From a bacterium (lineage in GTDB: Bacteria > Bacteroidota > Bacteroidia > Bacteroidales > WCHB1-69): DNA of 64,000 nt. Position numbers and translations under genes: made by a program. The stretch is taken from NCBI GenBank assembly GCA_963643165.1, contig CAVIJD010000005.1, positions 11,436 to 75,435 of the forward strand, read 5' to 3'. The notes beneath the pieces were generated by a model, which saw nothing but the letters and a program-made list of their open reading frames with translations, did not search any database and was not told the origin of the DNA. Positions 10,294-61,335 of this stretch are shown here, in pieces (positions within the stretch are counted from its first letter, which is position 1; each line of letters begins with the position of its first letter).

Positions 10294-11034
10294 ATGAAAA
10301 AAGCAAAATTTGGTTCTTTCCTTTGGCAGCATTTCCTGCTGCTGATTTCTCTTTTTGTGATGACGTTAGGCGTAGCCGTATGTGTGCGCAGCGGTCTCGG
10401 TTCCAGCGTCATATCGGCGATCCCATACGTTTTTGAGATGGCCGGCAAGCAGCGTCCTGCTGTCCCGTCGCTCACTATTGGGCAATACACCTACATAATG
10501 AACGCATTGTTGGTTTTAGGGCAGATTATTGTGCTGCGGCGTCGGTTTGAGCCGGTGCAGTTGTTGCAATTGGCAGTCGGTTTTGTGTTCGGGTCGCTCA
10601 TAGATGTCAACATGTTGCTCACGCAGTGGTTAGAGCCGTCCGGACTGCTGGCCAAGGTCATCACACAAGTGGCGGGTTGCACCATCTTGGGCACGGGCAT
10701 TGCGTTGGAGGTGCGTTGTGGTTCTGTCACCATGCCTGGCGAGGGCTTTCCCGTGGCTATCAGCATCGTTACAGGAAAGGAGTTCCCGAAGGTCAAAATC
10801 TGCGTTGACATTGCCCTCGTGGTTTTGGCCGTGCTCTTCTGCTACCTCTTTTTCGGGGCATGGCAGTGGTACATCGTCGGTGTGGGCACGCTTTTCGCGA
10901 TGGTCTATGTGGGGGTAGTAGTGCGCGCTGTAGGCAAGCACATCGGGTGGTTCGACCGTCTGTTGGCCTATCGTCCCGGCTTCCGTCGCTACATCTATGG
11001 TTTGGCCAAGTGGCTGTTCAAGTCCGACCGTTAG
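10294..11034 (+). CDS. polytopic membrane protein, YczE/DUF6198-like
   Basis: MKKAKFGSFLWQHFLLLISLF..., GVAVCVRSGLGSSVISAIPYV and GTGIALEVRCGSVTMPGEGF. The family assignment is from memory of the motif pattern. Confidence 0.6.
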   Translation: MKKAKFGSFLWQHFLLLISLFVMTLGVAVCVRSGLGSSVISAIPYVFEMAGKQRPAVPSLTIGQYTYIMNALLVLGQIIVLRRRFEPVQLLQLAVGFVFGSLIDVNMLLTQWLEPSGLLAKVITQVAGCTILGTGIALEVRCGSVTMPGEGFPVAISIVTGKEFPKVKICVDIALVVLAVLFCYLFFGAWQWYIVGVGTLFAMVYVGVVVRAVGKHIGWFDRLLAYRPGFRRYIYGLAKWLFKSDR

Positions 11035-11227
11035 CAGTGCATGTCCGGAGTCTCTTGCGGGCGATGTGAGACTTACGACATAAGGACTAAGACTTCAGAG
11101 CGTAGTGCGGGTTGTTACAAATTCCATCATAACTTGCAGTCAGTCTGGGGGCGTGTGTGGGGGGAGTTGTTAGTCTGCGTTTTCCTTGTGCGAGAGACGG
11201 AATGGGTCTGTGTTCTGTTCTGTGACT

Positions 11228-11381
11228 TTGGGCATCGGATATGCCAAATCATTGGCGGTGAAACCGTCGGGGCAAGCCGCATTCCAAGTCGTATGAGCCT
11301 CAGAGGGGCTCAATATCGTGGAAAGAGAGAAAGAACAACACGCGTAACGCCTCTACACTCTACATTCGTGTGGTAGCCGTG
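11228..11381 (-). mobile_element. R1-D: truncated, inverted copy of the R1 MITE-like element (left end only)
   Basis: The reverse complement of 11363..11381 is cacggctaccacacgaatg, matching the R1 left terminal inverted repeat at 17 of 19 positions. The following ~150 bp align to the R1 5' part with an internal collapse of the cattggcgg hairpin. More decayed similarity may extend toward ~11070. Confidence 0.7.
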
Positions 11382-11413
11382 GGGGGATAAAGACTCTGCA
11401 GGTGTGATAATTC

Positions 11414-11555
11414 CTACATTCCCTCATCAACACATAACGATGTGACGTTAGTCGGGACGGGGACTTCCATGTCGAGGTGGAATTGCACAGGGCCTTTCCC
11501 CAGTCTTTTGGCTCGTGTGTCTGCCCCTTGTAACTCTTGGGAGGGCGGCTGTCCG
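11414..11555. repeat. R2 copy 1: ~142-bp conserved 3' boundary repeat of cassette 1
   Basis: Differs from 12500..12642 at only 3 positions by hand alignment. Lies downstream (on the minus strand) of the 198-aa orphan gene. Confidence 0.85.
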
Positions 11556-11722
11556 CTAAAAATTTGGCGTACTTGTCCAACAGATAGGCATAGACCTTGG
11601 AGAAGAACTCCTGGGGACGACGGATATTGGCTTCAGCAAGCGTGCTTCTCCTGACCAGATAGTTCGTGCCGAGATGCCCGAGTTTGTGCGCCTCAGCCTT
11701 CCTGCCAATTGTATTTGTTTTA

Positions 11723-12319
11723 TCAGTTGTTCCGTTCCTCGCCGAAAAGTGTCTTCACACATTGGTCAAGCATGCGCTTCGCCGTTGACGCAATCGTGGC
11801 ATAATCACAGTCGCGCAACGTCACGGTTCCCCATTCCGGGGTCATTGCGGACACTATCTTGATGTATGCGTCCCAATATCTGTCGGTGCCCACCGTCCCC
11901 ACTGCGGCATTCTCCGTCCCTTTGTGACAAGTCAAGCAAGGTGTCGCACATTCGATGCCGTCCTTGGCAAGCTGCACGTGCGAGCCGTCGAATATGTTCC
12001 CAGGGATTTCGGCCTCATCGCCGACTTCGTCATTGAGGTAGCGAAAACACCGTAGTGTGCGGTCGTCGCAATCTATATGATAAATGAATTCCTCGTCGCC
12101 GTGTACACAACCATCGGGCTCATACGCGTCGCTGTATTGTGTTAAATGAGATACGATACTTTCCGGTTCCCAACAGTTGTGTTTCAATGTGTCCGCATAT
12201 TCCCTAAGCAATTTGACCAATTGCCTGCCGACACCTTCAGGGTACCCGTCACAGTGATGATAGACATACTGCGAATCCGTACCGGCTTTCTTAATGATGA
12301 TATGACATCTTGTGCTCAT
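11723..12319 (-). CDS. hypothetical protein (198 aa; YHHCDGYPEG motif, Cys-rich C-terminal half)
   Basis: MSTRCHIIIKKAGTDSQYVYHHCDGYPEGVGRQL...; no family recognised. An alternative start at the conserved leader ATG (12349, MLKIEVPYNT-) is in frame. Confidence 0.6.
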   Translation of the reverse strand: MSTRCHIIIKKAGTDSQYVYHHCDGYPEGVGRQLVKLLREYADTLKHNCWEPESIVSHLTQYSDAYEPDGCVHGDEEFIYHIDCDDRTLRCFRYLNDEVGDEAEIPGNIFDGSHVQLAKDGIECATPCLTCHKGTENAAVGTVGTDRYWDAYIKIVSAMTPEWGTVTLRDCDYATIASTAKRMLDQCVKTLFGEERNN

Positions 12320-12331
12320 AGTATTGTAGGG

Positions 12332-12434
12332 GACTTCTATTTTTAACATTTTCACACCGACCCTCTGAACTTTGTGAAGTTCGTTAGCCAAAATCCAAAG
12401 ATGTCGGGACGGCAAATGTATTGTTTTTCTGTTT
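12332..12434 (-). promoter_or_regulatory. R3 copy 1: conserved promoter/leader of cassette 1
   Basis: About 90% identical by eye to 14022..14124. Contains a minus-strand TAcaTTTG (-7 box, + strand 12413..12420), a ccgac...gtcgg stem and an ATG at 12349. Confidence 0.6.
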
Positions 12435-12499
12435 ATTTTACAGTCGTTTCAAAAATTTTCGACATAGTTGGTAAAATATTGTATGACAATATGTTACAC

Positions 12500-12642
12500 T
12501 CTACATTCCCTCATCAACACATAACGATGTGACGTTGGTCGGGACGGGGACTTCCATGTCGAGGTGGAATTGCACAGGGCCTTTCCCCAGTCTTTGGGCT
12601 CGTGTGTCTGCCCCTTGTAACTCTTGGGCGGGCGGCTGTCCG
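12500..12642. repeat. R2 copy 2: conserved 3' boundary repeat of cassette 2
   Basis: Near-identical to 11414..11555. Separated from the cassette 2 cargo by the R1-A insertion. Confidence 0.85.
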
Positions 12643-12736
12643 GTAAATTGACTACTTTTGCGCATTGACTACTTTTTTTATTGCAAGACATGGATAGTCA
12701 AAAGGGCTGACACCTTTCACGAGACATCAGCCCTAA

Positions 12737-13056
12737 TCACGGCTGCCGCACGAATGTAGAATTTAGAATTTAGAATTTAGAATGTAGAGGCGTTATGCGT
12801 GTTGTTCTTTCTCTCTTTCCACGATGTTGGCCCTCTTCGAGGACCTGTTTGACTCGGGGCGCGGCTTGCTCCGACGGCTTCACCGTCGGTTATGGTCATT
12901 GGCGGCTCAACGAGCCGCCAATGATGGGGCATCTCCGATGCCCGAACACTGCGAGAACTTCTTTTCCAGGGCTGACTTACGACTTATGATGGAAGAGGAG
13001 GCGATTTGCGCAACGCCCCAGCCGCGAACAGTTGGCTCGTTCGTGCGGTAGCCCTG
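12737..13056 (+). mobile_element. R1-A: internally deleted copy of the R1 MITE-like element
   Basis: Left TIR cacggctgccgcacgaatg (12737..12755), five tagaat-type heptamers and hairpins at 12871..12889 and 12897..12923. The right end 13038..13056 aligns to the R1 right TIR at 13 of 19 positions. It lacks ~340 bp between two gcgc(a/g)acgccc repeats. Confidence 0.75.
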
Positions 13057-13071
13057 TGAATCTTTGCCGTT

Positions 13072-13272
13072 CTATTTCCTCAGTTCGTTGACAAGGTCTT
13101 CAAGTATATACTGGTCGCTCATCAAATGCAGTCCCGTCTTGGGGTCGTTTAGTTGCTGGTAAACATTGGTGGAATAAAACAGGTCGAGTGCCCGTTCTGC
13201 ACTGATATGCAGTGTCTCTGCCAGAAGCATGATGATGCGGCTCTGTTTGCGCCATAACACGTTGTCTCTCAT
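13072..13272 (-). CDS. DUF3791-like small protein (second copy in triad)
   Basis: 66 aa: MRDNVLWRKQSRIIMLLAETLHISAERALDLFYSTNVYQQLNDPKTGLHLMSDQYILEDL. Pattern matches DUF3791 as remembered. Confidence 0.7.
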   Translation of the reverse strand: MRDNVLWRKQSRIIMLLAETLHISAERALDLFYSTNVYQQLNDPKTGLHLMSDQYILEDLVNELRK

Positions 13273-13275
13273 ATC

Positions 13276-13782
13276 TTAGTCCTCCTCTTCGGTTACGATG
13301 TTTGATGAAACGAATGTCAGGTACTTGTCCACTATTTCCTGGTTGAGTATGCAAAGCTGATGGTTTACAGCCTTGTATTTCAATTGTCCCAATGCTTGCT
13401 CGGCTGTGATGACTCCATTTTCATAGTCTTCCACAGTGTCGATGACGTTGTCGTTTGCCACGCCTCCCTCCACTATGTCGTATTGCTTTTGCAGGTTGCC
13501 ACCTCTACGGCAGTCTATAACATAGTTGAGCCATTCAAGGTCGTAAGCTTCGAAGGTCTTGATGTGGTAGTTGTTGGCTTTTGCCCCTTCTATGTCCAGG
13601 GTGAAGGTAGAAACCACGGCTTGCGCTCGTTTTCGTCTCTCTGCAATCACTTTGGCCCATGATTCGGCTTGTGTTTGTAGTTTTGTGAGATAGAAGCCTT
13701 GCCCGAAGTCCACGTTGTTTCTGCCCAACTTGACGAGCGGAGTGGTTACTTCCGTATATGACCCATGAAATATTGTTATCAT
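13276..13782 (-). CDS. DUF3990-like protein with ADP-ribosyltransferase-like H-Y-E motifs
   Basis: 168 aa: MITIFHGSYTEV...DFGQGFYLT...YDIVEGGVANDNV. The start overlaps the upstream gene's stop (ATGA at 13779..13782). Confidence 0.75.
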   Translation of the reverse strand: MITIFHGSYTEVTTPLVKLGRNNVDFGQGFYLTKLQTQAESWAKVIAERRKRAQAVVSTFTLDIEGAKANNYHIKTFEAYDLEWLNYVIDCRRGGNLQKQYDIVEGGVANDNVIDTVEDYENGVITAEQALGQLKYKAVNHQLCILNQEIVDKYLTFVSSNIVTEEED

Positions 13783-14012
13783 TGTTCAGCCTCCCAATTT
13801 AAGAGTGTTTCACTTATGTCATCTGCCACCCACTGTAGACTTTGCGTGTGTAGTTCTTCATACCGTTTGAAGAGTCGGTTGTGTATCAACCCCTGCTTCT
13901 GCAAGCGGTCGTGCATGTCTTTGCCGGATATGCCCAAGTTGCGTGCTCCACTTTCTATTGCCATTACTGCGAAGTGGATGCGCCGATATGTGTCATTGTT
14001 TTGAATTTCCAT
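13779..14012 (-). CDS. DUF3791-like small protein (first copy in triad)
   Basis: 77 aa from MEIQNNDTYRRIHFAVMAIESGARNLGISGKDMHDRLQKQGLIHNRLFKRYEELHTQS... The long N-terminal extension in the track ORF (to 14528) runs through repeats R3 and R1 and is rejected. The conserved leader ATG at 14039 is in frame. Confidence 0.7.
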   Translation of the reverse strand: MEIQNNDTYRRIHFAVMAIESGARNLGISGKDMHDRLQKQGLIHNRLFKRYEELHTQSLQWVADDISETLLNWEAEQ

Positions 14013-14021
14013 TTTGTTGGG

Positions 14022-14124
14022 TACTTCTATTTTTAACATTTTCACACCGACCCTCTGAACATTGTGAAGTCCGTTAGCCAAAATCCAAAGATATCGGTGC
14101 GGCAAATATAGTGTTTTTCTGTTA
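14022..14124 (-). promoter_or_regulatory. R3 copy 2: conserved promoter/leader of cassette 2
   Basis: Paralog of 12332..12434. Has a minus-strand TAtaTTTG (+ strand 14103..14110), a caccga...tcggtg stem and an ATG at 14039. Confidence 0.6.
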
Positions 14125-14149
14125 TGACTGTCAGGTAAACACAAAACAG

Positions 14150-14811
14150 CACAAGACCCGGGCGAATGCAGAATGTAGAATGCAGAGGCGTTACGCATGT
14201 TGTTCTTTCTCTCTTTCCACGATGTTGACCCTCTTCGAGGACCTGTTTGACTCGGGGCGCGGCTTGCTCCGACGGCTTCACCGTCGGTTATGGTCATTGG
14301 CGACTCAACGAGCCGCCAATGATGGGGCATCTCCGATGCCCGAGGACTACAAGAACTTCTTTGCCCCACGCACCATGCTAGGGCTGACTTGCCAACTAAG
14401 ATGGAGGATGTGGCCATCTGCGCGACGCCCTCGGAGAGGGCGAAAGCGGGCTGCCGCAGGCAGTCTGCTCCATAACCGGCGGTGGAGCGACCGCAAGGGA
14501 GCGGAACCGTCGGCTGCGACGCGCCCACGCCACCCTCGACCCTCGAAGAGGGCCAACATCAACGTCCAGGTCGGAGATCGCCGACTTCGCCAAGTACAAG
14601 CGGGAGTTCTTCGAGAAGTACATCGACCTTTCCAATGGCCTGCCGACAGACGGCACGCTGCGGCGCTTTTTCCAGAACCAGACCCCGAAGTCGTTCCGGA
14701 CCCGCTTTGCGGAATGGGCATCCTCAATCGTGCATGACAGCGCGCATGGCAAGGTCTTCAAAGCGCAACGCCCCAGCCACAATCAGTGGGCTCATTTGTA
14801 CGGCAACCGTA
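14150..14811 (+). mobile_element. R1-B: full-length R1 MITE-like element with decayed left TIR
   Basis: Nearly identical to 16894..17557 across its interior. Right TIR is catttgtacggcaaccgt. The left TIR matches at only ~12 of 19 positions. Confidence 0.8.
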
Positions 14812-14828
14812 TAAATCATGGCCGGAAA

Positions 14829-14860
14829 TTTGGCTGTGCGATATTATTTTTGTATTTTTG
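14829..14860 (+). promoter_or_regulatory. Bacteroidota promoter (-33 TTTG / -7 TAttTTTG) for the Fic gene
   Basis: TTTG at 14829..14832 and tatttttg at 14853..14860, spaced 20 nt apart, about 44 nt upstream of the ATG at 14904. Confidence 0.5.
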
Positions 14861-14903
14861 CCGCAAAATATGCGGCATTATTTGAATTGTATTACCGCAC
14901 AAA

Positions 14904-16205
14904 ATGACAAAAGGCATGTATATACACGAATATGACAATTGGACAGACTTTCGTTGGGACGATGCGCAGATAGCACTCAAGCTGGATGAGGTGACGCGAA
15001 AACAAGGACTGCTTTACGGCAAATTGAACGGACTTGGCTTTGACAGCCAACTCAATGCGATGGCAGAGAACTTGACACGCGACTTGCTGCATTCGTCAGA
15101 GATTGAAGGCATCCGTCTCAATGCAGACGAGGTGCGTTCGTCAATAGCACGGCGACTGGGTATTGAGAGCAAAAACAGCGTCCCGTCCTCACATTATATA
15201 GACGGAGTGGTGTCTGTAATGCTCGATGCTACCGAAAACTATGAGCATGTGTTAACCAAGGAACGTCTTTGCGGTTGGCAGGCGGCTTTTTTTCCAACAG
15301 GCTTCAGTGGGGGCAGTCAGATAGAGGTTGGCAAGTATCGCACTTGCGACGAACACATCGTATCGGGCTTCTTGGGCCGTGAACGGGTACATTATGTGGC
15401 GCCGTCGCCGGATAGAGTGGAAGCGGAGATGCAGAAGTTTGTCGATTGGTTCAACAGAGAACAACCCGTTTCGCCAGTTATACGCTCTGCTATTGCCCAT
15501 TTCTGGTTCGTCAGCATTCATCCTTTCGAGGACGGCAACGGCCGCTTGGCCCGCATCCTTGGTGACGTGTTCCTGTCACGAGGCGACCGCAGCCGCTTGC
15601 GTTTCTACAACATATCTTCCGAAATAAACCGTGACAAGAAGCATTACTATGAGGTGCTCGAACGAGTGCAGCATGGTGATGGCGACATAACGGAATGGCT
15701 GGTGTGGTATGTGGATACATTGTTGGCGGCTTTGGCTGAGGCAGATTCATTGGTAAATGGTGTACTCAACAAGTCGCTCTTCTGGCTCCGGGCATCGTCG
15801 GCGGCAATGAACCAACGCCAGACTGACACGCTGAACCTTTTCCTTGATGGCTATGAGGCCAAGATTACGACCAAGACGTGGGCCGACCTGAATAAATGTT
15901 CCAAAGACACTGCCGGCCGCGACATTCAGGATTTAGTGCTGAAGGGTATGTTGCGCGAAGATGTCCCTGGAGCTAAACGTCCAAGCTATTCCATTGTGTT
16001 CAGCGATGACGACCTCTATACATCTGACTTCACTGATGTAAGCGTGGAAGGAAATGGCAACGAGTATTATCTGTGTGCTATATATAAAGGTGTAACTTCG
16101 GTACGTGAGCGTATCCTTCGTCTTGATGCGGAACGATACGAACGTGGTGATCTGTCAAAAGAAAATTTGCTTGCCAAGTACTGCAGTTATATCGTAAAAG
16201 AATAA
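14904..16205 (+). CDS. Fic-family protein (AMPylase-type motif; DUF4172-like N-terminus; C-terminal wHTH-like extension)
   Basis: Canonical HPFEDGNGRLAR motif and an N-terminal inhibitory-helix motif SSEIEG, i.e. (S/T)xxxE(G/N). N-terminus is YIHEYDNWTDFRWD. Confidence 0.9.
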   Translation: MTKGMYIHEYDNWTDFRWDDAQIALKLDEVTRKQGLLYGKLNGLGFDSQLNAMAENLTRDLLHSSEIEGIRLNADEVRSSIARRLGIESKNSVPSSHYIDGVVSVMLDATENYEHVLTKERLCGWQAAFFPTGFSGGSQIEVGKYRTCDEHIVSGFLGRERVHYVAPSPDRVEAEMQKFVDWFNREQPVSPVIRSAIAHFWFVSIHPFEDGNGRLARILGDVFLSRGDRSRLRFYNISSEINRDKKHYYEVLERVQHGDGDITEWLVWYVDTLLAALAEADSLVNGVLNKSLFWLRASSAAMNQRQTDTLNLFLDGYEAKITTKTWADLNKCSKDTAGRDIQDLVLKGMLREDVPGAKRPSYSIVFSDDDLYTSDFTDVSVEGNGNEYYLCAIYKGVTSVRERILRLDAERYERGDLSKENLLAKYCSYIVKE

Positions 16206-16240
16206 AAGAGACACGGATGTCATTTGTAGAACACAAGTCT

Positions 16241-16328
16241 TAACCCAACATTGACTCTTCCAAGATGTTTTTCTTTTGTAGTCAGCAGTTTGCGTCATAG
16301 CATTTGCGTCGCTGTGTACTACAGATTT
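16241..16328 (+). repeat. left terminal inverted repeat of the composite IS
   Basis: Hand alignment to the reverse complement of 18518..18605 gives roughly 85% identity. The only block mismatch is cttttgt versus tgggggg. Confidence 0.75.
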
Positions 16329-16444
16329 CCTGACTTTGGCGGTCCGAAATCCGTCTTTGTGCTAATTGTTTGAATATTAGCAAATTAGTGATTTTGTGCA
16401 AATATTTTGGGTGAATCGCTGCTCCTTTTTGCTATCTTCACCGC

Positions 16445-16880
16445 ATGTTTGTACGCAAACGGAGGAATCGTTCAGGCACTACCAGTGTGGTAGTGATAGA
16501 CAAGAGTTCGCACCAATACAGACCTTCCCTTACAGACAATCATTGATCAATATCACGGGCTGTGGGTCGTGGAACGGGCTTTCAGGATATCCAAAGGCAA
16601 CCTTGAGATGAGGCCTATCTTCCACTTCACCGAAAAACGAATAGAAGCGCATATATGCATATGCTTCGTCGCTTACAAGGTCTATAAGGAACTTGAACGT
16701 GTCGTCAAGGAAATCAAACTTGGCATCAGTGTTGACAGACTCCTTGATATTGCGAAAACAATCATCACTCTGCAAGTCAAGATACCGGGAACTGACAACG
16801 TGCGTGCCAAGACACTTTTCCTGACTCAGGAACAGCAATCCCTACTGCCTCTTTTCAAGGAACTGGAAATCGATTCTTGA
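16445..16880 (+). pseudogene. IS1634/IS4-like transposase remnant with large internal deletion
   Basis: N-terminal MFVRKRRNRSGTTSVVVIDKSS then a stop. A different frame from ~16521 gives IIDQYHGLWVVERAFRISKGNLEMRPIFHFTEKRIEAHICICFVAY..., which is C-terminal YREK-region-like. The whole catalytic core is missing. Confidence 0.65.
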
Positions 16881-16893
16881 TTTGGGTGAATCT

Positions 16894-17557
16894 CACGGCT
16901 GCCGCACGAATGTAGAATTTAGAATTAAGAATGCAGAATGTTACGCGTGTTGTTCTCTCTTTCCACGATGTTGGCCCTCTTCGAGGACCTGTTTGATTCG
17001 GGGCGCGGCTTGCTCCGACGGCTTCACCGTCGGTTATGGTCATTGGCGACTCAACGAGCCGCCAATGATGGGGCATCTCCGATGCCCGAGGACTACAAGA
17101 ACTTCTTTGCCCCACGCACCATGCTAGGGCTGACTTGCCAACTAAGATGGAGGATGTGGCCATCTGCGCGACGCCCTCGGAGAGGGCGAAAGCGGGCTGC
17201 CGCAGGCAGTCTGCTCCATAACCGGCGGTGGAGCGACCGCAAGGGAGCGGAACCGTCGGCTGCGACGCGCCCACGCCACCCTCGACCCTCGAAGAGGGCC
17301 AACATCAACGTCCAGGTCGGAGATCGCCGACTTCGCCAAGTACAAGCGGGAGTTCTTCGAGAAGTACATCGACCTTTCCAATGGCCTGCCGACAGACGGC
17401 ACGCTGCGGCGCTTTTCCCAGAACCTGAACCCGAAGTCGTTCCGGGCCCGCTTTGCGGAATGGGCATCCTCAATCGTGCATGACAGCGCGCATGGCAAGG
17501 TCTTCAAAGCGCAACGCCCCAGCCACAATCAGTTGGCTCATTTGTGCGGCAACCGTG
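16894..17557 (+). mobile_element. R1-C: reference full-length copy of R1 MITE-like element (664 bp)
   Basis: Left TIR cacggctgccgcacgaatg (16894..16912). Right TIR 17539..17557, whose reverse complement is cacggttgccgcacaaatg (17 of 19). The interior encodes a decayed ISAs1-type N-terminal domain (EIADFAKYKREFFEKYIDLSNGLPTDGTLRRFSQNLNPKSFRARFAEWASSIV). Confidence 0.8.
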
Positions 17558-18518
17558 GACGACACGACACCGTCGCCTCCTTTGCGGTGAACCAGGCGAA
17601 AGCGGACGAGATGCTGCTCACTGCCGACTTCTTTGCGAACAAGACAGTCGGTATGAGCCTTGACCCGCTGCAGGCCATGGACAACTACGGAATGAGGGAC
17701 GAGCATGCGAAATGTATCGCTCTGCAGAAAGACCAACTCGGGCACAACCGTCTCAGAGCATGGCCTGAAAGCGGCAGACACGGCCGGATGCTCATCTGCT
17801 TCGTGGGGCTCATCCTCGCCTCATATGTCCGTTCGGTGTGGGAGGGTGACGAACTTCTCCGCAAGTGCTTCGACTCGACCGAAATCGTGCTGACCGAGAT
17901 GAGGGCCGTGCGTTGCATAGAGCAGATAAGTTCAACTTATCCGAGAAGGTCATCGAACGCATGGGCAGGACCCGGCAGAGATACCCGTCGATAGCCCGGC
18001 ACTATGCGATAGACTATGTCCCCGACAACGAGGAGCGGCCGAAGAACATGGCCGACATCCGCTGGCGGATAGCCGTGCCGGAGAATGTGGACAGGGACAG
18101 CGGCGTCTATTTCCTGCGCACAAACGTGCCGACTTTTGACGAGAAGACCGCCTGGGACTACTACAACCTGACGCGGGAGATAGAATGCACCAACCGCCAG
18201 TTGAAGACCGACCTCGGCCTGCGCCCCGTCTATCACCAGACCGACGGGCGTTCGGACGCCCACCTCTTCTTCGGGCTGCTGGCCTACTGGGTCGTGAATA
18301 CCATACGTCACAGGCTGAAGCAGAGGGGGATGACTCACTGTTGGACGGAAATCGTGAGGAGGATGTCAACGCAGAAGGCCATAACGACGAAAGCCGTCAA
18401 TGCCGTCGGCGAAAAGGTCCGCATGCGGCAGTGCAGCGAGCCGACGAAGGTCGCCAACGAAATCTACGAACTCTTGGACTACAAGAAAATGCCGTTCCGG
18501 AAAATCAAGATCGAATAA
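17558..18518 (+). pseudogene. two further transposase C-terminal fragments (IS1634/IS4-like), frameshifted
   Basis: Fragment 1: ...YGMRDEHAKCIALQKDQLGHNRLRAWPESGRHGRMLICFVGLILASYV...TEIVLTEMRAVRCIE, with a frameshift near 17930. Fragment 2: SGVYFLRTNVPTFDEKTAWDYYNLTREIECTNRQLKTDLGLRPVYHQTDGRSDAHLFFGLLAYW... ending at the right IR. No intact DDE core is present. Confidence 0.6.
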
Positions 18519-18605
18519 AATCTGTAGTACACAGCGACGCAAATGCAATGACGCAAGTTGCTGACTCCCCCCAAAAAACATCTTGAAAAAGTCAAAGTTG
18601 GGTTA
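18518..18605 (-). repeat. right terminal inverted repeat of the composite IS
   Basis: See 16241..16328. It starts at the stop codon of the last transposase fragment. Confidence 0.75.
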
Positions 18606-18868
18606 TTTTAGTCCAAACCGTTCAACCTGTTCGTAGCGGCATACGTTGTCAACCAGGTTCGTCAGGGTGTTTCAGGCCGCGTTCCGCGCAAAGCCTCCCC
18701 GTCACCCGCCCACAACTCATTGCCATGGCCAACCTTTGTCGCGTTGTTCTCCCCGCTGGAGTTGCGCTGACAGGACATCTCCACGAAACAATCCTCACCC
18801 CCTCGCTCGCCTCTGCACAATTTTTTCCCCTTTTCTGCGTTGTACTGCTTTAATTTAAATGCACGATT

Positions 18869-26675: not shown

Positions 26676-27163
26676 CACGGCTGCTGCACGAATTTAGAAT
26701 TTAGAATGTAGAGCGTTACGCGTGTTGTTCTTTCTCTCTTTCCACGATGTTGGCCCTCTTCGAGGACCTGTTTGACTCGGGGCGCGGCTTGCTCCGACGG
26801 CTTCACCGTCGGTTATGGTCATTGGCGGCTCAACGAGCCGCCAATGATTGGGCATCTCCGATGCCCGAACACTGCGAGAACTTCTTTGCCACGGGCCGAC
26901 TTACGACTTATGACTTATGAGGGATGATGTAGCGACTTGCGCAACGCCCTCGGAGAGGGCCAACATCATCGTGCTGGTCGGAAATCGTCGACTTCGCTAA
27001 GAACAAGCGGGAGTTCTTCGAGAAGAACATCGACCTTTCCAATGGCCTGCCGACGGACGACACGCTGCGGCGCTTCTTCCAGGACCTGAACCCGAAGTCG
27101 TTCCGGGCCCGCTTTGCGGAATGGGCATCCTCAATCGTGCATGACAGTGCGCATGGCAAGGTC
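26676..27163 (+). mobile_element. R1-E: right-truncated R1 copy abutting the 3' end of the phosphofructokinase gene
   Basis: Left TIR cacggctgctgcacgaatt... It lacks the 112-bp segment present in R1-B/C. It encodes the best-preserved ISAs1-like stretch (26975..27139: WSEIVDFAKNKREFFEKNIDLSNGLPTDDTLRRFFQDLNPKSFRARFAEWASSIV). Homology stops at 27163. Confidence 0.8.
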
Positions 27164-28270
27164 GTCCCCGAAAGACATCCCGATGCCTCGGGCGGTGTGA
27201 ACCAGAAAGTCTTTGTCGGGACAGACAAGATGCGGGGTCCGCAGCGCCTCTTCCAAAGACACATGTGTGATTTCGGGGTGCCTGTAAACCACAAGGTTGC
27301 CGTATTTTTGCTCTTTCACCAATTCGAAGGCCTTGACGCCGAACTCGGTGGCCAGGATGCGGTCGAACGCCACAGGCGTTCCTCCGCGCTGCAAGTGCCC
27401 CAACACGGTTACGCGGATGTCGTGCTCTACGCCCAATTCCAGGAGCTCTTGCCGGAGCACTTCACCCACGCCTCCCAACTTGATGTGGCGGTCGCCTACG
27501 GCAGTCGGCGCCATGCCCGTGACTTTCCCGTCCGCTTTCTTGGCGCCCTCGGCAATGACTATGTTGCAGAAGCCCATGCCGTTTTTGTAGCGGGTTTCGA
27601 TTTTCTTGGCGATGCTTGCGGGGTCGTAAGGGATTTCGGGGATGATGCAGACCTCGGCGCCGCCGGCAATGGCCGTGTGCAGGGCTATCCAGCCGGCATC
27701 GCGCCCCATGACCTCCATGATGAACACCCGGTTGTGGCTGTCCGCCGTGGTGACTAACTTGTCGAAGGCCTCGGTGGCAATCTGCACCGCCGTCTGAAAC
27801 CCGAAGGTGAAGTCGGTGCTGCTCAAGTCGTTGTCAATGGTTTTGGGGACGCCTACCACGGGAATGCCCATGTTCTGGAGTTGTAGCGATATCCGCTGCG
27901 ACCCGTCGCCGCCGATGTTGATGACGGCGTCGAACCCCATCTCTTCAATGCGGCGTTTCATCAGTGCAGAACGGTCTTCTATGACCCATTGCCCATTCCC
28001 GTTTTTGACGGGAAACTGGAAAGGACCGCCTTTGTTCGTGGTCTTGATGATGGTGCCGCCCTTGACGTGCAGTCCCGACACGCTCTTTTCGGTGAGCTCT
28101 ACGATCTCGATGTTGTCTTTCAGGATGCCGTTGAACGACTCGATGCATCCGTAAACTTTCCACTCCTCGGGCTCGAGGCCGGCACGTTTCACGATTCCGC
28201 GGATTACCGCGTTCAGGCCGGGGCAGTCGCCGCCGCCCGTGGCTACCAGTATTTTATGGGTTTTAGACAT
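27131..28270 (-). CDS. 6-phosphofructokinase (ATP- or PPi-dependent not resolved); last 9 codons and stop derived from R1-E
   Basis: MSKTHKILVATGGGDCPGLNAVIRG, NIGGDGSQ, EVMGRDAGWIAL. The C-terminal ...GIGMSFGDD is followed by LAMRTVMHD*, which is encoded by the antisense of the R1 element. Confidence 0.88.
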   Translation of the reverse strand: MSKTHKILVATGGGDCPGLNAVIRGIVKRAGLEPEEWKVYGCIESFNGILKDNIEIVELTEKSVSGLHVKGGTIIKTTNKGGPFQFPVKNGNGQWVIEDRSALMKRRIEEMGFDAVINIGGDGSQRISLQLQNMGIPVVGVPKTIDNDLSSTDFTFGFQTAVQIATEAFDKLVTTADSHNRVFIMEVMGRDAGWIALHTAIAGGAEVCIIPEIPYDPASIAKKIETRYKNGMGFCNIVIAEGAKKADGKVTGMAPTAVGDRHIKLGGVGEVLRQELLELGVEHDIRVTVLGHLQRGGTPVAFDRILATEFGVKAFELVKEQKYGNLVVYRHPEITHVSLEEALRTPHLVCPDKDFLVHTARGIGMSFGDDLAMRTVMHD

Positions 28271-44253: not shown

Positions 44254-44280
44254 AGTTACAATAAAAGGGCAAATAAAAAA

Positions 44281-44378
44281 GGGTAAGCTACTTGTATCGC
44301 ATCGCTACAACCTACATGCCCTTGCTGTATTCCTACCCTGGGGGAGTTAGTAGGGAGCAGATCGTACAAGACTTACCC
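44281..44378 (-). ncRNA. ffs: signal recognition particle RNA (small bacterial 4.5S type)
   Basis: A 98-nt long hairpin (GGGUAAG...CUUACCC closing stem). The minus strand carries the domain IV core CAGG-GUA-GGAA-UAC-AGCA. That is a GGAA tetraloop closed by GUA/UAC, compensatory relative to E. coli UCC/GGA, flanked by the conserved CAGG and AGCA loop strands. A U-run follows the hairpin and a -7 box precedes it. Confidence 0.7.
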
Positions 44379-44383
44379 GGCCG

Positions 44384-44391
44384 CAAAAGTA
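44384..44391 (-). promoter_or_regulatory. -7 box (TActTTTG on minus strand) for the SRP RNA gene
   Basis: + strand caaaagta. Its last G lies 6 nt upstream of the predicted RNA 5' end at 44378. Confidence 0.5.

Positions 44392-59655: not shown

Positions 59656-61335
<1,680 letters not shown>

Follow-up and report, generated by a model that had tools for sequence, protein, structure and literature searches.

A putative portable promoter-leader sequence and insertion-sequence debris beside unrelated accessory genes in a Bacteroidales genome

Putative mobile promoters have been defined as sequences that share 80% identity or more across a minimum of 50 nt, lie between -150 and -50, and precede non-homologous coding sequences (PMC3575422). 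Most of the published families are pairs at ~92% identity within one genome (PMC3575422; Matus-Garcia, Nijveen, van Passel 2012), some are common to several taxa and some are tied to insertion sequences (ISs) (PMC3575422). For the rAID-1 arrays of Bacteroidales, the criteria given by Ross et al. (10.1101/471110) are a XerD-like recombinase at the 5' side and at least two co-directional downstream genes with a guanine plus cytosine (GC) content of 41% or less. The subject here is a short repeat, designated R3, that stands in front of two unrelated sets of genes in a 64-kb stretch of contig CAVIJD010000005.1 of the Bacteroidales assembly GCA_963643165.1. This whole stretch is referred to as the window, and the coordinates of its repeats and units are read on the minus strand unless stated.

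The locus consists of two units in tandem, each of which begins with a copy of R3 and ends with a copy of a second repeat, R2. The upstream unit (unit A) carries a triad of genes whose products belong to the families DUF3791, DUF3990 and DUF3791, and the downstream unit (unit B) carries a gene for a 198-residue protein of a family named here for its N-terminal residues, MSTRC. A preliminary description of the locus interpreted R3 as a conserved expression signal and R2 as a conserved 3' boundary, which together would form a cassette scaffold for swappable cargo. One half of that interpretation has survived. The occurrence of R3 in other genomes in front of other genes supports the view that cargo may be exchanged behind a portable expression signal. 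The other half has not, since R2 is a fragment of an IS. The explanation that best accounts for the locus, and that is probably the correct one, is that R3 is a portable promoter-leader reused before unrelated genes, that R2 is IS debris, and that no cassette machinery is involved. The locus is not an integron-like cassette array.

The R3 repeat and its relatives

The two copies of R3, R3a in front of the triad (14123->14014) and R3b in front of the MSTRC gene (12433->12324), align without gaps over 110 nt, 101 of which (92%) are identical, and the window contains exactly these two copies and no third (nhmmer E ~1e-37). The repeat of about 90% identity over ~103 bp that had been reported is therefore real. 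The cargo genes of the two units are unrelated, as the preliminary description also stated, there being no similarity between the units outside R2 and R3; its further claim that the segments between cargo and R2 are dissimilar was not quite accurate, as weak similarity between the units extends ~20 nt upstream of R2.

The sequence TAnnTTTG is the -7 motif of Bacteroidetes promoters, a role established from Bacteroides. A match to this motif occupies the same position in both copies of R3, namely TATATTTG at 14110->14103 in R3a and TACATTTG at 12420->12413 in R3b, in agreement with the earlier proposal that each unit would have its own promoter. An example of the spacing between a -7 box and a transcript start is available within the window itself, where the gene for a small signal recognition particle (SRP) RNA of the Bacteroidales (44277-44391, minus strand), which also identifies the window as Bacteroidales, is directly preceded by the TAnnTTTG box TACTTTTG at 44391->44384. 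Transcription from R3 would begin a few bases downstream of the box, with starts predicted near 14100 and 12410, and the 5' end of the RNA would fold into a hairpin encoded by R3. By sharing both the 5' hairpin and the -7 box, unrelated genes would receive one and the same transcription signal, and probably also a shared control of mRNA stability or translation.

The native start codons, which were defined from homologues, begin 2-5 nt past the end of R3. An in-frame extension encoded within R3 (MLKIEVP) was rejected as a genuine N-terminus because the homologues start at the downstream methionine. Homologues of the first DUF3791 protein are 76-78 aa long and start at the methionine of position 14012, and where DUF3791 homologues have extended N-termini these are unrelated to the R3 peptide. 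The ATG within R3 is not conserved, as it is AAG in one relative (the second copy of contig L027, see below) and is followed by a stop after 7 codons in another (contig L028), and the MLKIEVP extension is therefore incidental.

The leader structure was analysed with an alignment of five sequences, which are all of the distinct R3 sequences at hand. In R3a, which scores 113 bits with the R3 covariance model, the leader hairpin spans ~14101->14043, and the fold is more stable than expected (z = -2.45 over all 110 nt, and -2.76 when the fold begins at the predicted transcription start site). Measured from just past the -7 box, the long hairpin of R3 in the window has z-values of -2.2 to -2.8. Three of the five family members have hairpin folds with z-values of -2.2 to -3.0. 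The alignment retains a two-helix hairpin, with 94% of the cells paired compared to 29-52% when the partners are slid, and it includes compensatory changes at two pairs of the hairpin along with four one-sided changes from G-U to Watson-Crick pairs, all in one member. Of 500 shuffles, 4 attained the covariation score of 0.215 (versus 0.156 +/- 0.02). The loop of the hairpin has the sequence GGACUUC, the complement of a GAAGUCC box that lies shortly before the start codon. The two boxes could form a pseudoknot helix, and as they hardly vary among the sequences there is no covariation to be seen in it. Searches of Rfam with R3 and R2 gave no match, whether the gathering threshold or E <= 5 was applied.

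Copies of the R3 family that are 69-91% identical occur in two other, non-syntenic Bacteroidales contexts. These were found with a profile of the R3-encoded peptide, which retrieved three open reading frames (ORFs) among 1.84 billion representative proteins, and the corresponding DNA was then fetched. The first context is a 100-kb ENA contig (L027) with two R3 copies 800 nt apart, between which lies an end resembling that of R1, an IS family that also occurs in the window. The first of these copies shares 91% identity with R3a and is not followed by a clear gene. The second is more diverged, has a 21-nt insertion and is directly upstream of genes that match HEC-02A/B in PADLOC. An in-frame stop interrupts the HEC-02A-like ATPase gene of this contig (10984-11985) after codon 51, shortly beyond the Walker A motif, and the gene is either a pseudogene or the product of a sequencing error. 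In the second context (L028/L029), a single R3 copy is located upstream of a gene with LRR_5 and Por_Secre_tail domains (an LRR/type IX secretion system, or T9SS, gene), with no IS nearby. No R2 sequence was present near the R3 copies of L027 and L028/L029, nor was any sequence of ISX, the IS from which R2 is derived.

Pattern scans of larger collections identified no further copies. A merged 34-mer in IUPAC code for R3 or R2 had no match in GTDB representative genomes or in Joint Genome Institute (JGI) metagenomes, an R3 21-mer had none in GTDB genomes, a second R3 21-mer had none in JGI metagenomes, and R3, R2 and the family core pattern had none in IMG/VR; these exact-pattern negatives bound the abundance of the repeats weakly, as the patterns were too strict or the collections ill-matched. 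L027 contains the 21-mer of the GTDB scan but is an ENA assembly, and a copy in the JGI collection (P0317) has the L027-type variant of the region behind the 21-mer used there. Plasmids and phages gave no match by blastn in 'distant' mode, and a literature search with the R3 core sequence returned only unrelated primers. The five sequences suggest that R3 represents a small promoter-leader family that appears not to have been described before and that is associated with defence-type genes.

It was considered whether R3 is simply the native leader of the triad, and this was rejected. Four other contigs have homologues of the triad at 78-82% DNA identity, and homology among these loci runs from ~7 nt before the ATG to the last stop codon, with upstream DNA that is unrelated to R3. 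This argues that R3 is not the ancestral leader of the triad and was placed in front of both genes. The module to which R3 belongs is longer than the repeat. Between R2a and R3b lie 67 nt, rather than the 65 initially reported, and this spacer matches the DNA upstream of the L028 copy of R3 in register (score 20.5, z = 5.9). Spacer and R3b together are homologous over ~185-200 nt to the L028 intergenic region, which contains no IS. The spacer is therefore the upstream part of an R3 module of ~185 nt in full and not a neutral gap. The alternative that the spacer is a degenerate right end of ISX was rejected, as the alignment was not significant. In front of the triad, the module was cut by an insertion of ISX, whose right terminal repeat now abuts R3a. 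It is conceivable, if doubtful, that R3 and its AT-rich upstream part constitute an undescribed Bacteroidales module, consisting of a promoter and a structured leader, that is copied before acquired accessory or anti-phage genes. In an 'adaptor' version of this idea, PDC-M13, HEC-02, MSTRC and LRR/T9SS genes may be under one post-transcriptional control.

The position of ISX next to R3a could also mean that R3 is itself the outward-reading end of an IS or of a miniature inverted-repeat transposable element (MITE) that inserts upstream of genes and drives them. In keeping with this, the left end of R1 lies 300 nt from R3b and, in L027, 40 nt ahead of the second R3 copy. The survey of mobile promoters included 210 putative mobile promoters that corresponded to known IS sequences (PMC3575422). 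Reference copies of ISX, however, stop at the terminal inverted repeat (TIR) with no R3 beyond it, R3 lies outside the TIR of R1, and the L028 copy has no IS in its vicinity. Moreover, the R3 module has no TIRs of its own, its ends aligning like shuffled sequences (189-233 of 500 shuffles scored as well), which rules out a MITE, and the DNA upstream of R3 differs among the copies with the exception of R3b and L028. It is thus highly improbable that R3 is the end of a mobile element.

R2 and the fragments of insertion sequences

The two copies of R2 (12647->12501 and 11560->11414) are 147 nt long and identical at 143 positions (97%), and these are the only two in the window (nhmmer E ~1e-54). 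The number of differences is four, rather than the three initially reported. Positions 1-88 of R2 match ISX (nhmmer E 1e-16 to 3e-17), and translation of the DNA between the 198-residue gene and R1a, a partial copy of R1, produced 176 protein matches, the best of them at 80-94% identity, to DUF4372 (PF14294)/DDE_Tnp_1 (PF01609) proteins. A reference copy of ISX in contig L006 is ~1.43 kb long and has the TIRs TTATTGCTGTCCGGTAAAAC and GTTTTACCGGACAGCAATAA as well as a likely 7-bp target-site duplication; its reconstructed transposase scores 186 bits on NF033592, the IS4 model of NCBIfam, which has a cut-off of 115.

Each unit contains a different part of ISX. An internal transposase fragment (11709->11470) begins 13 nt after the stop codon of the MSTRC gene and overlaps the first ~90 nt of R2b, and 12647->12557 matches the same internal part of ISX over a shorter span. 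Following the triad is a left-end fragment of ISX that includes the transposase start and a terminator-like hairpin (12733->12699; -20 kcal/mol, then UUUU), which probably terminates the triad transcript at about 12699. An internal deletion between two TTTA(C/G)CGGACAGCCG repeats connects this fragment to R2a. What follows the triad is therefore an internally deleted ISX, and what follows the 198-residue gene is a different truncation of the same ancestral ISX fragment. Near R3a, positions 14122-14160 align with nt 1388-1427 of the L006 element with a score of 21.5, compared to 10.0 +/- 1.4 for shuffles (none of 300 reached it), and no other site on that strand resembles the TIR with as few as 5 mismatches. 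No intact ISX is present in the window; there are only this right-end relic (14160->14122) and the other fragments, and therefore nothing there can transpose.

Two features of ISX itself were observed. The core of its right TIR, TTTACCGGACAGC, is found at two internal places with one orientation, namely where the transposase begins and ~330 nt downstream (L006 6013-6031 and 6345-6362), and the window copy at 12650-12633 is deleted exactly between the two sites. Among the ISX ORFs in the database, many show truncation, duplication or a frameshift in the vicinity of codon 88 and of codons 120-150 (P0076, P0088 and P0148, for example).

The remainder of R2 is a ~56-nt 3' continuation shared by both copies. 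An origin of this segment from ISX was rejected as not significant, as was homology to L028 (30 of 500 shuffles). R2 thus consists of a piece from the interior of an IS4-family transposase gene, followed by these 56 nt. Neither strand of R2 has structure beyond that of dinucleotide shuffles (z = +0.34, -0.09, +0.33), and with z near 0 R2 was rejected as a structured RNA or an attC, which bears out the earlier view that it is not an attC-like palindrome. In addition, the 5' extents of the two copies reach different points in ISX, and R2 is therefore not a defined site. With its match to a transposase gene and its lack of a fold, R2 is transposase debris and not a boundary site, and it is probably neither functional nor a site of recombination.

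These properties of R2 bear directly on the possibility of a cassette platform, in which R3 and R2 would be the 5' and 3' boundaries recognized by a site-specific recombinase encoded elsewhere, as in integrons or rAID arrays. Such a platform would account for the interleaved order R3-cargo-R2-R3-cargo-R2, in which only a few bases flank the start and stop codons of the cargo, for the different cargo of R3 in other genomes and for the tandem R3 copies in L027. Beyond the nature of R2 and its ragged 5' ends, however, R2 is missing beside R3 in L027 and L028, and no recombinase was found within ~9 kb; the gene and Pfam tables covering ~9-10 kb on each side of the islet that holds the two units list no integrase or recombinase, as had been noted from the sequence. 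Assemblies of the species do not vary in the arrangement, and the exact-pattern scans of GTDB representatives, JGI metagenomes and IMG/VR, which set a weak bound, yielded no further units. A cassette platform is highly improbable. The preliminary description had also raised the possibilities that R3 and R2 occur only at this locus, that they always accompany homologous cargo, or that both are the ends of one IS or MITE. The first is false for R3, given the copies in L027 and L028/L029, and the second is false because the cargo is unrelated. As for the third, R2 lies inside an IS and R3 is part of none, though the right end of ISX abuts R3a.

The most satisfactory account of the R3-R2-R3-R2 order is ordinary homologous recombination or duplication between the repeats. 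This would have been either a tandem duplication or the single-crossover integration of a circle carrying R2, the spacer, R3 and the triad, with IS insertions and deletions coming afterwards. An alternative is a plain segmental duplication of a block of R3, gene and IS fragment, after which one copy had its gene replaced or lost, with R3 an incidental promoter of no wider significance. Each repeat has only two copies in the 64-kb window, the IS-rich setting favours rearrangement, and the divergences of R3 (8.2%) and R2 (2.7%) are not significantly different (Fisher p = 0.08), so that a one-event and a two-event history are not separated. A plain duplication does not, however, account for the exact replacement of a gene from start to stop, for R3-family copies before unrelated genes in two non-syntenic contexts, or for the homology of the spacer and R3b to an IS-free region of L028, and it is considered unlikely.

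Several observations weigh against R3 as a portable promoter-leader that is reused amid IS debris. Both cargo units are trimmed to an unusual degree, as only 2-5 nt separate R3 from the ATG and IS-derived DNA begins 12-13 nt past the stop codon, and this is not obviously predicted by random rearrangement. The tandem pair of R3 copies in L027 hints at a regularity beyond chance, and the -7 box is degenerate in both members of that pair. The second L027 copy and the L028 copy fold no better than shuffles, and the covariation, which is based on only five distinct sequences, is thin. Lastly, the 56-nt tail of R2 and the 32 nt after R2b are left unexplained.

Had the cassette interpretation been true, the locus would represent a new gene-capture system in Bacteroidales. 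That interpretation does not hold, and the finding that half of the 'scaffold' is transposase debris serves as a warning for the interpretation of IS-rich islands, where such a misreading is tempting. There remains an instance of promoter-leader reuse, in which a signal of ~100 nt with a conserved hairpin precedes unrelated and mostly defence-type genes in at least three genomic contexts. Translation initiation in Bacteroidales is not based on Shine-Dalgarno sequences. If the R3 module is functional, it would help to explain how horizontally acquired defence genes gain expression signals in Bacteroidales, and it could serve as a compact native expression part for engineering these bacteria.

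The accessory islet and its genes

The two units belong to an accessory islet of ~8 kb (11035-18868) located between genes for a DUF6198 membrane protein and a flavodoxin. Its gene content consists of the triad, the MSTRC gene and a gene for a SoFic-like Fic protein, which is divergent and beside the triad, such that three defence-type units are found in one 8-kb islet (Table 1). Its IS content consists of ISX fragments, four of the five R1 copies or fragments in the window, and a broken IS1634-like element. The islet is a small accessory region of defence type between conserved housekeeping genes that has been cut repeatedly by two IS families. The GC contents of the triad (46.6%) and the MSTRC gene (51.1%) are below that of the backbone (54%).

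The window is 99.5% identical to a contig of the metagenome-assembled genome (MAG) GCA_963627375.1. Unit A is present in one other assembly, with 99.5% identity to the window, and unit B is present in at least five MAG or Logan assemblies of this species that are independent of one another. Over the extent of their contigs, which typically end inside R1a or at the end of R2b, at least 11 other assemblies of the species are collinear with the window. The arrangement of R3 and R2 is therefore real and stable in the sampled population. Gain, loss or reordering of units, for which a comparison of strains had been suggested, was not observed among these assemblies.

Table 1. Coordinates of the genes, repeats and IS fragments of the locus
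Feature	Coordinates	Strand	Description and basis
R3a	14014..14123	-	In front of DUF3791/DUF3990/DUF3791 triad; 92% identical to R3b
R3b	12324..12433	-	In front of MSTRC-family gene; repeat comparison, fold, box, covariance model
Spacer	12434..12500	-	67 nt, AT-rich (25% GC); upstream part of R3 module
R2a	12501..12647	-	First ~90 nt correspond to ISX transposase codons ~118-150; last ~56 nt not matched to ISX
R2b	11414..11560	-	Second copy; ISX fragment plus 56-nt tail
ISX internal transposase fragment	11470..11709	-	Codons ~88-150; blastn 84% over 212 nt; tblastn
ISX left-end fragment	12633..12736 (match 12737->12633)	-	blastn 71-76% to contigs L006, L007, L009
ISX right end including TIR	14122..14160	-	Abuts 5' edge of R3a
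DUF3791 gene	13779..14012	-	77 aa, ATG at 14012; Pfam E 2.6e-10; PADLOC PDC-M13A E 3.4e-12
DUF3990 gene	13276..13782	-	168 aa; Pfam E 6.4e-46; best PADLOC model PDC-M13B, E 9.2e-50
Second DUF3791 gene	13072..13272	-	66 aa; Pfam E 2e-7; PDC-M13C E 1.1e-14
MSTRC-family gene	11723..12319	-	198 aa, MSTRC...YHHCDGYPEGVG; relatives include phage genes
DUF4172-Fic gene (SoFic-like)	14904..16205	+	Pfam; PADLOC SoFic E 1.8e-44
R1 copies	12737-13062, 14164-14830, 16893-17570, ~26680-27166; 11227-11381	+; last one inverted	Repeat families
R1b	12737..13062	+	Between triad and R2a; repeat families, inverted pair, direct reading
R1c	14164..14830	+	Truncated 5' part of R1, DDE_Tnp_1_assoc fragment
R1a	11227..11381	-	Inverted partial R1 left end, 32 nt beyond R2b; assemblies break here

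The Pfam matches of the triad confirm the family assignments that had been made from the translations alone. DUF3990 belongs to the ADP-ribosyltransferase clan (PMC7955679). A PDC-M13-like triad that has lost its DUF3990 gene is found in one relative (L013, 5001-5491), where the pair of DUF3791 genes is adjacent and flanked by AAA_14/DUF4143 ATPase genes.

The 198-residue protein had been called an orphan, yet its family includes 75 homologous database clusters, and all 10 of the retrieved sequences begin with MSTRC. The family has invariant residues M1-S2-T3-R4-C5 and Y-H-H-C-D-G-Y-P-E-G-V-G, followed later by an HGD..Y.Y motif. The protein matches phrog_1987, and a homologue with 38% identity (P0003) is encoded among small genes beside an intein-containing NrdD on a phage-like contig of 98.7 kb. 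Its AlphaFold2 model has a predicted local distance difference test (pLDDT) value of 78 and is confident for residues 1-110; the protein has no fold match in the PDB and no match in Pfam, NCBIfam or PADLOC.

R1, the second IS family of the islet, is represented by five copies or fragments in the 64 kb. It has TIRs CACGGCTGCCGCACGAA and encodes a DDE_Tnp_1_assoc fragment, which was matched by PF13808 in the corresponding frame of copy R1d (E 1.6e-9). R1b, a 326-bp MITE-like copy with internal deletion and the TIRs CACGGCTGCCGCACGAA / TTCGTGCGGTAGCCCTGTG, is the R1 insertion previously placed between the triad and R2a. Just inside the left end of R1 is a 7-nt tandem repeat (AGAATTT/GAATGTA type), which has 3-4 units in the window and is expanded to ~20 units in L027, where R1 also occurs at 10459-10817 and 17839-18606. 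Between 16241 and 18605 is a 2.4-kb element with 88-nt inverted repeats (86% complementary) and IS1634/IS4-like transposase fragments, which has an R1 copy inside it and looks like a nested, dead IS. Elsewhere in the window, positions 59892-59988 and 60738-60834 form a 97-nt direct repeat of 72% identity, whose GC-rich, coding-like composition suggests two homologous domains in one gene and not a mobile repeat.

Comparison with described systems

The candidate defence genes can be placed by their PADLOC matches, as the triad matches PDC-M13 A/B/C, the Fic gene matches SoFic and the cargo in L027 matches HEC-02A/B. The definition of PDC-M13, HEC-02 and SoFic as candidate systems is based on genomic association, and none of the PADLOC models is matched by the MSTRC gene. 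R2 and its surroundings match IS4-family elements with a DUF4372 N-terminus in three respects, which are the transposase gene, the hairpin of the left end and the right TIR. Copies of ISX in the database are often truncated or internally deleted, as here, and the window differs in having fragments only and no intact copy.

The preliminary description judged that neither integron cassette arrays nor rAID arrays fit the locus cleanly, and the comparison is in accord with this, as defining features of both are lacking. In common with integron arrays, the locus has tandem units, unrelated cargo and a repeated element at the 3' side of the cargo. It differs from them in that the tables covering ~9-10 kb on each side contain no IntI integrase, in that the 3' repeat is an IS fragment without an attC-like imperfect palindrome, and in that each unit has its own TAnnTTTG box, with a terminator-like hairpin between the units, instead of a common promoter (Pc). 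With rAID-1, the locus shares its occurrence in Bacteroidales, co-directional accessory genes and a GC content below that of the backbone. R3 and R2 recur between the two units, which may correspond to the repetitive intergenic motif of rAID-1. The locus differs from rAID-1 in having cargo of 46.6-51% GC, which is above 41%, in having only two units and in having cargo other than type VI secretion system immunity genes. The gene tables of the locus list no XerD-like recombinase, a comparison that did not include the rAID-1 reference protein itself.

R3 also resembles the putative mobile promoters. It falls within their definition, with 92% identity over 110 nt located at about -110 to -5 of both genes and with unrelated cargo behind it, and a pair of copies at 92% is typical of a published family. 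R3 differs from the described mobile promoters in that it extends as far as the start codon, has a leader hairpin that is conserved and fronts candidate anti-phage systems in two of its four gene-linked copies.

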